Shown here in pieces: positions 1,233 to 3,940 of a DNA stretch of 25,618 nt. The position numbers and the translations under genes are program-made. The stretch is from Bacteroidales bacterium (GTDB taxonomy: Bacteria; Bacteroidota; Bacteroidia; Bacteroidales; JAOZTL01), in assembly GCA_029942205.1 (NCBI GenBank), contig JAOZTL010000001.1, positions 1 through 25,618 of the forward strand. The letters are read 5' to 3'. Within the stretch, counting starts at the first letter, position 1. Every line of letters starts with the position of its first letter. The notes beneath the pieces are model-generated. The model ran no database searches, was not told the origin of the DNA, and saw only the letters and a list, made by a program, of their open reading frames with translations.

Positions 1233-1302
1233 AGTATGCTCTGTTGTAAGGTCTTCGACCTATTTTTGTTCCTAATGAAGCGCATTGATTCAATATCGCG
1301 TA

Positions 1303-1310
1303 CAAAGATA
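1303..1310 (-). promoter_or_regulatory. Bacteroidota housekeeping promoter -7 box (TATCTTTG) upstream of lepA
   Basis: Matches TAnnTTTG, about 70 nt upstream of the lepA ATG; no clear -33 TTTG. Confidence 0.6.
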
Positions 1311-1356
1311 CCACTTTTTGATGGATTATTTATTATTGGAGATTTTATTTGTTTGG

Positions 1357-1460
1357 AATCCGACGTATCAAGATTCTACAGCAATCCGACGTATCAAGAT
1401 TCTACAGCAATCCGACGCATCAAGACTCTACAACAATCCGACGCATCAAGATCCTACGGA
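1357..1460. repeat. 26-bp tandem array AATCCGACGYATCAAGAYTCTACARC (units start at 1357, 1383, 1409, 1435)
   Basis: Exact 26-nt period read from the sequence; the fourth unit runs into the complete REP hairpin. Confidence 0.95.
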
Positions 1461-1520
1461 TGCTTGATGGTCTAGCAACACAGTAAGATATTGAAGCATC
1501 CGTAGGATCTTCAAGCATCT
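1439..1520. repeat. Inverted doublet of 35-bp REP-like hairpins (1439-1473 +, 1486-1520 -)
   Basis: CGAC G CATCAAG ATCCTACGGATG CTTGATG GTCT and an inverted variant with a CTTGAAG/CTTCAA stem. Confidence 0.85.
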
Positions 1521-1602
1521 GGACTTTAAGGAAAGACCGACGCATCATGGGCAACCATGAACGAGTTCGAAGCCACATCTTTTTTTTGCAATATTATATT
1601 TA

Positions 1603-1912
1603 TCAAATATTAATTCTTTTTTTTATAATTTCGGGATTCCTTGAAGTATGTAATACGGCATAAACATCCACAACTCTTCGGTCTTGATCTATCCTAAAAT
1701 ATAGTGCATAAGGGTATTTCAATAATAATGCTCTTCGGAAATATAAAAAAACTTTAATAAACATAAATGGATTGTTTCGTAAAAGCGTTACTACTCGATC
1801 AAACTCAAGTAGGAAATCGAGACCTAATCCTTTTTTTTGCTCTTCGTACCAAATCCACCGTATCTTCCAAATCCAATTCGGCTTCGGGCTTAACGATTAA
1901 CTTATACATCAT
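1603..1912 (-). pseudogene. RelE/ParE-family type II toxin with a single-base frameshift at about 1851-1853
   Basis: Removing one T gives MMYKLIVKPEAELDLEDTVDWYEEQKKGLGLDFLLEF...FRRALLLKYPYALYFRIDQDRRVVDVYAVLHTSRNPEIIKKRINI*, a typical ParE-like toxin. Span is 310 nt (103 codons + 1). The start overlaps the upstream antitoxin stop. As written the frame stops after 35 aa. Confidence 0.85.
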
Positions 1913-2336
1913 ATTTTTTTTCTAATCGCTGTTTTACATTTTCCCATGAGTCGCCTGCTTGTGGATCATTTTTGTAGGCATTGTATCGTTGTTGTAGGAT
2001 ATTTTTGTGTTCTTCGGAGATGGGCTGACTCTCTCTGTCGTAAAACAATTGTTTGGTGGAGTTAATCTTTTCTTGTAGAATCGAGCTCTCCATTTCGTTG
2101 CTTCGTAGATTGACTTTGTGTGCGAATAAGTCTTCTAACTCATTCTGTAATTGCTGCATTGTTTCATCATTATCTAAGGACTTTGTCCATTCTACCAACA
2201 AATCAATATCACTCGTTGCATGAAACTGATCGGTGCATACCGTCCCAAAGAAGAATAATTTCTTAACGGGAAAGCTTTCACATATTTCTTGTGATTTTTC
2301 AATATATGAAAATATATTTTCTAAAAGAATATCCAT
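1902..2336 (-). CDS. Minimal nucleotidyltransferase (MNT) domain fused to a putative addiction-module antitoxin (Unstab_antitox/TIGR02574-like)
   Basis: N-terminal ~100 aa: VKKLFFFGT...SDIDLLVE...LEDLF..KV.L...INSTKQLFY (MNT signature). C-terminal ~40 aa: ISEEHKNILQQRYNAYKNDPQAGDSWENVKQRL (addiction-module component pattern). Directly upstream of the ParE-like gene. Confidence 0.8.
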   Translation of the reverse strand: MDILLENIFSYIEKSQEICESFPVKKLFFFGTVCTDQFHATSDIDLLVEWTKSLDNDETMQQLQNELEDLFAHKVNLRSNEMESSILQEKINSTKQLFYDRESQPISEEHKNILQQRYNAYKNDPQAGDSWENVKQRLEKKYDV

Positions 2337-2355: not shown

Positions 2356-2476
2356 ACAAAGATACCACTTTTTGATGGATTATTTATTATTGGAGATTTT
2401 ATTTGTTTGGAATCCGACGTATCAAGATTCTACAGCAATCCGACGCATCAAGATCCTGCGGATGCTTGATGGTCTA
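2356..2476. repeat. Direct repeat copy 2 (121 bp) with the TATCTTTG -7 box (2357-2364, minus strand), 26-bp units and a REP hairpin (2441-2475)
   Basis: Near-identical to 1302-1474; the -7 box lies 20 nt upstream of the MNT-antitoxin ATG. Confidence 0.95.
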
Positions 2477-2491
2477 AGGGGTAGCTGATGT

Positions 2492-3130
2492 CTAATGTAA
2501 TAAATAGTCTTTGTATAGGGCGTTTCGTTTGTTTTTCCAAACGAGTTTGCCTATTGTCGAAAATTTTTCTCTCTTTTTTTTCAGTTCCATGCCGTTTTCT
2601 AGTCGGTTGGCTTGTGCTTGCTTGCGTTCTGATTTACGGACATTAACGACGCCTACGCTGTCGCTAAACCTTTTGATGCATTGTTTCAATTCGTCCAAAT
2701 CGCGTTGTTGAATGTTTCGAGCCTGCAACTCGCTCGAATAAATGGTAGCTGCATGATGTATTATACTGCTTTTCGGAACTAAATCTACTTCTTTGGTCTG
2801 AAGGTAGTTTCTTGTGCCAAAAAAATGGTAAGTCGCCGTATGGCTAGGATACAGACTTGCTACTCGCTGCATGATATATTTCATTTTACTCAATAGTTGC
2901 TTTTTGGCTTTGGCTTTTTCGGTATATGCTTTTTTCACCATAGCGAGGTATCGTTCATCATCCAATATTTCTTGATAATCGTTAATCAAAACGTGAAACT
3001 GAGCAATCGTCTCGTTTGTTATACTGTATGCCTTCAGTTCGGCGATGTCTCTTGCCAATATTTGTTCCATAAAACGGCATTCGGATAGTAATTCTGCTTG
3101 TGCTATTTGTAATCTTGCTTTTTTTTTCAT
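2492..3130 (-). CDS. Hypothetical helical protein (212 aa), resembling a Bacteroidota conserved hypothetical family
   Basis: Long ORF with ATG, amphipathic helical composition and a C-terminal ..YKDYLL motif recalled from similar Bacteroidota hypotheticals; no function recognised. Confidence 0.75.
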   Translation of the reverse strand: MKKKARLQIAQAELLSECRFMEQILARDIAELKAYSITNETIAQFHVLINDYQEILDDERYLAMVKKAYTEKAKAKKQLLSKMKYIMQRVASLYPSHTATYHFFGTRNYLQTKEVDLVPKSSIIHHAATIYSSELQARNIQQRDLDELKQCIKRFSDSVGVVNVRKSERKQAQANRLENGMELKKKREKFSTIGKLVWKNKRNALYKDYLLH

Positions 3131-3548
3131 TCTTGTTTTTTTTAAGGTCTCTCCTTTTGTGATGTTGCTTATGCAATTGTTTTTAATTTATCAATAAAAT
3201 ATATTTTTATAATAATTCAAAAACGAATAAAATAATTATACTGCAAATTAAAGTAAATAATTTATATTATCCAAATGTTTTTATGTATTTTTTTTCATTG
3301 ATAACACAAATTTAGTTCTATTTATTGTATTATTTGCCAAAACAAAGCCAAATAAGTCGTTCTGTAAGCCTTTATTTTGCTAGTCATACAGCATTTCTCA
3401 CTAAGGATCAACGGTTTTATTTATTGGCACAATAAATAAATAAAAAAGAACATGTATTACACCAATAAAAACAAAAGAATAGTCCATTAGATCTCTAAAA
3501 AAGCATCTCGAAACATAAAAAAGAGACTTTGGGACATAAAAAAAAAGG

Positions 3549-3762
3549 CTTAGATCGACCAAAATAAAACTTAGATCAACTAAAAAAGGACTTAGTATCT
3601 GGTGAAAATGAACTTAGATCAACTAAAAATGAACTTAGATCAACTAAAAAAGGGCTTAGTATCTGGTAAAAACGAACTTAGATCGACTAAAAAAGAGCTT
3701 AGTATCGGGTGAAAACGAACTTAGATCAACTAAAAAAGAGCTTAGTGTCTGGTAGAAATGAC
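3549..3762. repeat. 21/22-bp tandem array with an invariant CTTAG core (AABAABABAB)
   Basis: CTTAG at 3549, 3570, 3591, 3613, 3634, 3655, 3677, 3698, 3720, 3741; degenerate units extend back to about 3486. Confidence 0.93.
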
Positions 3763-3940
3763 CTCAAACCAAGGAAAGCGTAACTATATTCAAGCCAAAA
3801 CAAATAAATATAGATTCAAAAGAAAATGAGTAGGCAATCAAAAGTGTATCACATACAAAAATAAATCAGGAATAGCTTAAAGTACACAGGAAGGATTGGA
3901 GGGATGATATTGAGGGTGAAGGATTGCTCCTACAAATGTC

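Follow-up and report, generated by a model that had tools for sequence, protein, structure and literature searches.

The gene described here joins, within one open frame, a whole MNT (minimal nucleotidyltransferase) domain to the toxin-binding tail of a ParE antitoxin, as our profile searches confirm, and it is probably a one-off chimera that arose by in-frame deletion or recombination and was left in a decaying toxin–antitoxin (TA) cassette. The stretch of DNA analysed, which we call the window, is 25,618 nt long and constitutes the whole of contig C1 of a Bacteroidales MAG (567 contigs, 77% complete, 2% contamination). The chimeric ORF (1902..2336, minus strand) runs open for 144 aa, is recognised in both halves by Pfam and is reproduced in a Logan contig. 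A ParE-like frame opens at 1912, and its first 11 nt take in the stop codon of the chimera (1902-1904); an equal 11-nt overlap is present in the intact pairs of loci L018-L021. From the N-terminus, the protein comprises an essentially full-length MNT domain (residues 1-100; 2037..2336, minus strand), delimited by homologues, an AF2 model and Foldseek; a breakpoint zone, 'ESQPIS' (residues 102-107; 2016..2033, minus strand), located by comparison with the C-terminus of the MNT P0004 and the middle of the antitoxin P0008; and a predicted C-terminal ParE-binding module of a DUF2281/Unstab_antitox-type antitoxin (residues 103-144; 1905..2030, minus strand), assigned from identity to P0008, a six-sequence antitoxin alignment (A2), Pfam and a complex model. 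The original prediction had described a 144-aa ORF joining a full MNT domain to an addiction-module antitoxin, with its stop codon overlapping a ParE-like toxin, and its description of this DNA is accurate in every point that we checked.

Profile searches with each half, the check that the original prediction had proposed, gave matches to Polbeta, NTP_transf_2 and Unstab_antitox that all lie above their gathering scores. Polbeta (PF18765) covers residues 13-103 over profile positions 1-92 of 93 (E 6.6e-10, 39.5 bits, cut-off 26.9), NTP_transf_2 (PF01909) reaches 27.8 bits against a cut-off of 21, and Unstab_antitox (PF09720) covers residues 100-134 over profile positions 19-54 of 54 (E 2.3e-6, 28 bits, cut-off 23.3), with residues 100-144 alone matching positions 20-54 of 54 at 30.2 bits against the same cut-off of 23.3. 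The antitoxin half therefore corresponds to the C-terminal two thirds of the Unstab_antitox family. In NCBIfam the fusion matches MntA_antitoxin and TIGR02574, both under their cut-offs; against the MntA equivalog NF047752 it scores 40.3 bits (cut-off 60), and the stand-alone MNTs P0002 (40.4) and P0004 (41.0) are likewise under that cut-off.

The architecture is a singleton. A HMMER scan of 1.84 billion cluster representatives returned 265 matches to the fusion, and among the best 150 of these none besides the window's own protein spans both halves: the MNT matches cover query residues ~1-107 and are ~100-112 aa long, and the antitoxin matches cover ~97-143 and are 74-87 aa long. A word-indexed search of 5.8 billion protein clusters recovered the window's protein and two plain MNTs, with no second fusion, and when 400 genomes from this order were searched in six frames, no match crossed the junction without stops. 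Two candidates that appeared to bridge the halves were rejected. The match at G041:C50 (query 10-133) proved to be an ordinary 112-aa MNT with an overlapping HepT-like ORF, and P0107, which aligns across the junction (query 69-141), was judged a chance helical similarity, since MNT homologues fit the stretch beneath it (ELEDLF..KV.L...KQLFYDRE) much better. The combination of MNT and antitoxin domains is thus seen nowhere else in the collections searched and is formally new. The original prediction had called for MNT–antitoxin fusions beside an intact parE in other genomes, and none was found in these collections; it had also named restriction of the fusion to this one assembly as one half of the pattern expected of a chance deletion, and this assembly is the only one in which the fusion was found across the 5.8 billion clusters, the 1.84 billion representatives and the 400 genomes.

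Each half nevertheless has ordinary stand-alone relatives. Among the matches listed, the nearest MNTs are P0002 (51% identical) and P0004 (49%), both 112 aa long, and both terminate in '...NTKQLFYDRE(N/S)..KIS(A/V)'; after P0002 comes a HepT gene, with a 32-nt overlap between the two. The nearest antitoxin among the matches listed is P0008, an 83-aa protein whose N-terminal part is DUF2281-like and which carries the C-terminal half of Unstab_antitox; in four contigs it is followed, with an 11-nt overlap, by an intact 102-aa ParE (P0153 in L018). Compared with P0008, P0059 and P0108, the fusion lacks the N-terminal ~42 residues of the parent antitoxin and carries the MNT domain in their place.

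These parent families also place the join. Because the fusion is MNT-like up to 'FYDRES' and antitoxin-like from 'ISEEHKNIL', the breakpoint falls within residues 102-107. An '..IS' is found at this point in both parent families, in P0004 as 'FYDRESRKISV' and in the middle of P0008 as NPEISDEHKNIL, and this shared sequence would suit a deletion mediated by microhomology. In L001, hepT starts at an ATG within the 3' end of the MNT gene; the corresponding triplet in the window is ACG. The proposed ancestral arrangement was sought in several ways. An intact tandem of MNT-HepT and antitoxin-ParE was found at 0 of the 45 loci examined; no MNT lies within about 1.5 kb of the antitoxin at 29 antitoxin loci from the 400 genomes of the order, or within 3 kb at L018, L019, L033 and L034; no antitoxin or ParE lies near the MNT at 12 MNT loci, in a search whose positive control worked; and a search of genome contigs for related loci returned two distant loci and nothing else. 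The relatives compared all come from other families, the MAG being the sole genome of its family among them, and the failed search for the tandem neither supports nor refutes the deletion model.

The toxin gene that the chimera overlaps is a pseudogene. Three-frame translation delineates a ParE-family toxin at 1603..1912 (minus strand), with the same sequence present in the Logan contig, and its lesion is a single +1 frameshift, caused by one surplus T in the run at about 1852-1854, with no other stops: the frame that opens at the ATG (start 1912) ends after 35 codons, and the remainder continues in another frame down to 1603. Read through the break (window:1606-1851~1853-1912:-, with a single X marking the break and the intact relative P0153 supplying the numbering), the product is 103 aa long, matches PF05016 over profile positions 2-89 of 89 (29.9 bits, cut-off 23) and shares 48% identity with P0153 along its whole length; among solved structures its one match is a weak one to ParE2 (8c26). 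Such a lesion may be of very recent origin or polymorphic. No intact ParE was found in the assembled 77% of the genome (no PF05016 match at E <= 0.01), and the new three-domain TA architecture that the original prediction had offered as one reading gains no positive support.

The MNT half presents a preserved fold with altered catalytic positions. In the AF2 model, built from a 37-sequence alignment, residues 1-100 form a confident MNT domain (pLDDT about 90), and the tail is less confident and is modelled as two helices (108-122 and 131-142). The best Foldseek matches of the model are MntA antitoxins and minimal nucleotidyltransferases such as 8xeh_E and 1wot, the top matches having TM-scores by target of 0.74-0.79 and rmsd of 2.2-2.3 A over 96 residues. 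Column counts were made over the window protein and 106 homologues of 90-125 aa, almost all of them MNT matches of the scan of 1.84 billion representatives. Position 32 is Thr in the window and Ser in 104 of the 106 homologues (Thr in 0/106), position 76 is Asn where 103 have Asp and one has Asn, and position 73 is His where 94 have Arg; the DxD aspartates are retained at positions 43 (Asp in 105/106) and 45 (106/106). The fusion accordingly departs from the GS-x10-DxD motif, reading G31-T32...D43-I-D45 with DxD intact, and from the third conserved acidic residue, with Asn76 giving KVNL for KVDL, all of which the original prediction had read correctly from the letters. GS-x10-DxD is the nucleotidyltransferase motif required for AMPylation in MntA-type proteins (PMC13000451). 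Against NF047752 the MNT half scores 38-40 bits, on a par with its HepT-linked relatives, which indicates that the changes are specific to the catalytic positions and that the MNT has undergone no general decay. The MNT half has presumably lost its enzyme activity.

The antitoxin tail, for its part, retains the features of a toxin-binding module. It is 62% identical to residues 36-82 of P0008 and keeps 9 of the 9 columns that are invariant in the six-sequence alignment A2. When residues 97-144 were modelled with the intact ParE homologue P0153, the complex scored 0.79 against 0.02 for the best of three controls, a mark reached by 51 of 78 solved complexes and by 2 of 108 mismatched pairs; the partner was a heterologous ParE, 48% identical to the window's, and a pass of this kind does not single out the binding family member. 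The modelled interface with P0153 comprises fusion residues 105-143. No solved structure of the antitoxin family was found by sequence. The model supports a retained tail that is a toxin-binding module competent for a ParE, here P0153 rather than the window's own, and suggests that the tail could still bind a ParE. Antitoxins of the P0008 group carry the same C-terminal module with differing N-terminal domains, and this natural N-terminal modularity makes a domain swap not far-fetched.

Taken together, the singleton status of the fusion, the ordinary stand-alone relatives of each half, the frameshifted toxin and the two altered catalytic residues favour a chimera of separate genes. The deletion chimera that the original prediction had put forward as its second reading is thus the favoured one, and the part that stays conditional is the deletion: we infer the ancestral tandem of MNT-HepT and antitoxin-ParE, the order of events and the deletion itself. 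In the proposed sequence, an in-frame deletion or illegitimate recombination would have fused the 3' end of an MntA-type MNT gene with a point midway along a small ParE-antitoxin gene. Judging from the nearest relatives, the DNA lost between them would have comprised the HepT gene and the first ~42 codons of the antitoxin, which encode its DUF2281-like N-terminal domain. The remaining product would be a folded MNT domain with a two-helix ParE-binding tail, just downstream of a duplicated lepA upstream region, and since the tail looks competent, the deletion could have been tolerated with ParE still active. The cassette would also have lost ParE to the frameshift and gained substitutions at two catalytic MNT positions. 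Because ParE is frameshifted, HepT is absent and two near-invariant MNT catalytic positions are changed, the cassette no longer works as a toxin–antitoxin module, and the chimera is most likely a neutral remnant on its way to loss. Several observations nonetheless run counter to this chimera reading: the frame is open, the MNT is predicted to fold confidently and its family score is not reduced; the invariant residues of the tail and its modelled ParE binding are also what a working antitoxin would show; ParE carries one lesion only; and the proposed intact tandem was found at none of the 45 loci examined.

The same observations lend themselves to a reading in which the protein is a working hybrid type II antitoxin, with a dead MNT replacing the DUF2281-like N-terminus as a scaffold or dimeriser and the ParE frameshift being recent or confined to a minority of cells. 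The conserved tail columns and the high score of its complex with a ParE, the confident MNT fold, the N-terminal modularity of the family, a promoter-like box 20 nt upstream of the ATG and the single lesion in ParE all speak for it. We nevertheless consider it unlikely: about 15 billion proteins and 400 related genomes yielded no second example of the fusion, both assemblies carry the ParE frameshift, a second ParE was not found in the assembled genome, and the complex model relied on a ParE only 48% identical to the window's. The specific evolutionary version of this idea, in which an inactive MNT was co-opted to scaffold a type II ParE antitoxin, a swap between type VII and type II caught just after its birth with the frameshift recent or polymorphic, is decidedly unlikely.

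The promoter-like box belongs to a direct repeat that brackets the TA cassette. A repeat search places the upstream copy at 2356..2476, where a 55-nt part found twice in the genome is followed by REP-like 26-nt units, and the second copy at 1302..1474, upstream of lepA (ATG 1232, minus strand), the two being 98% identical over 102 nt. The 55-nt segment occurs at these two genome sites only, and the REP-like units are dispersed over many contigs. The minus-strand end of each copy is TATCTTTG, which lies 20 nt before the fusion ATG and 70 nt before the lepA ATG, so that lepA and the chimera share one upstream region. This sequence fits the TAnnTTTG box of Bacteroidota promoters, and with such a box upstream the chimera probably has a promoter and may be expressed. 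The stretch was found in one public run, a hydrothermal-vent metagenome (run X1), and in no RNA run.

Several further features were observed around the cassette. The repeat bracketing would be consistent with a local duplication, or with a circular cassette having integrated through homologous recombination. A REP-like, hairpin-forming element of ~40 nt with the core GACGCATCAAGATCCTACGGATGCTTGATG lies in the window at 1437-1521 and 2437-2476 and on C8, C131, C469, C328, C558 and others; it is present at at least 14 places in the MAG, often at contig ends, where it probably breaks the assembly. A 212-aa ORF upstream of the cassette (2492-3130, minus strand) belongs to no Pfam or NCBIfam family (best E 0.02-0.15), and a tandem array of five copies with a 43-nt period (3518-3774; copies 64-78% identical to the reference copy) sits in a very AT-rich intergenic stretch (GC 0.22-0.32).

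These repeats bear on whether the arrangement is real. An assembly or sequencing artefact, with a junction or frameshift that occurs in no cell or a cassette misplaced through its flanking repeats, might be suspected of a contig from a 567-contig MAG, of a cassette set between 98%-identical repeats where the Logan unitigs end, and of a sequence present in one run only. It is very improbable in view of a k-mer assembly made independently of the MAG's: the Logan contig of run X1 (805 nt, depth 7.8) reproduces 1581-2385 with 0 differences and 0 gaps and covers both the domain junction and the ParE frameshift, so neither is peculiar to the MAG assembler, although the reads behind the two assemblies are probably the same and contigs hide minor variants. 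Depths agree as well: the cassette stands at 7.8 and the flanking unitigs at 6.9 and 7.2, and the shared repeat unitig (2356-2453) has a depth of 16.2, the near doubling expected of two copies. A false join within the coding region would, moreover, need a 31-mer shared between unrelated genes. What the resolution of the repeats determines is where the cassette sits, between lepA and the 212-aa ORF, and not what it contains.

The remaining partner to consider is the HEPN toxin. As the original prediction had stated, no HEPN gene is present in the window, where the HepT profile (PF01934) has no match, and the fusion's MNT is the only clear MNT in the assembled 77% of the genome. Elsewhere in the MAG, PF01934 matches two sequences, a 39-aa fragment that contains a stop and a full-length HepT-like ORF. 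The latter (G000:C296:638-1012, L003; minus strand, 124 aa, 43.3 bits) lies directly downstream of aspS with no adjoining MNT. By inspection of an ungapped C-terminal alignment, it reads RSRVSSES at the position of RNRIIHAY in the L001 HepT and so has neither the RNase His nor the AMP-acceptor Tyr; no NCBIfam HepT model matches it. That the MNT half serves in trans as a type VII antitoxin or sensor for a distant HepT/HEPN, with the tail as a passenger, an option raised by the original prediction, is extremely improbable even with its DxD intact and a HepT-like ORF that has no MNT beside it, since Thr32 and Asn76 occupy near-invariant catalytic positions, the sole full-length candidate is without catalytic His, acceptor Tyr or NCBIfam support, and the other HepT match is a broken fragment.

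Comparison with known systems sets the chimera between two TA types. The N-terminal 100 residues share the MNT fold and DxD of the HepT/MntA type VII TA system (Shewanella oneidensis SO_3166/SO_3165; PDB 5yep, 7bxo, 7aer), MntA chains being the top Foldseek matches and the Pfam Polbeta and NTP_transf_2 models and the NCBIfam MntA model all matching the fusion. In that system, however, an adjacent and usually overlapping HepT gene is the rule, as after P0002, whereas the gene that follows the fusion is a ParE, and the protein differs in having Thr for the Ser of GS, Asn for the third Asp and an appended 40-residue ParE-antitoxin tail. Fused MNT-HEPN proteins (FhepTA) are reported as a group of systems in which the partner is the cognate HEPN toxin and the GS-x10-DxD motif is required for self-oligoAMPylation (PMC13000451, Nucleic Acids Res 2026). 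The window's protein resembles FhepTA in carrying an N-terminal MNT domain within a single-chain TA-derived protein, whereas its second part comes from an unrelated type II antitoxin, of which it is a fragment, and no other such fusion was found in the collections searched. On the other side stand the PF09720/TIGR02574 antitoxins found with ParE/RelE toxins (PF05016), some of them with a DUF2281 N-terminus, as in the P0008-P0153 pair of L018. Fusion residues 103-144 are 62% identical to the C-terminal half of P0008, and the fusion, as in that pair, precedes a ParE with an 11-nt overlap; its tail keeps the A2 invariant columns and could be modelled on ParE. It departs from the pair in that the antitoxin's N-terminal ~42 residues are swapped for an MNT domain and the window's ParE is frameshifted; the norm in PF09720/TIGR02574 is a complete protein of ~70-90 aa with its own N-terminal helix or domain, which the fusion does not have.

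In summary, as a one-off next to a broken toxin, the fusion is best viewed as an evolutionary scar. The case serves mainly as a caution and a small illustration: through an in-frame deletion, TA genes can give rise to what looks like a clean 'new architecture' but is a unique remnant. Were the fusion functional, for which nothing that we found offers support, it would illustrate that antitoxin domains can be swapped naturally between TA types. The chimera also appears to mark out the ParE-binding module of this antitoxin family as its last ~40 residues, surviving on a foreign N-terminal domain.
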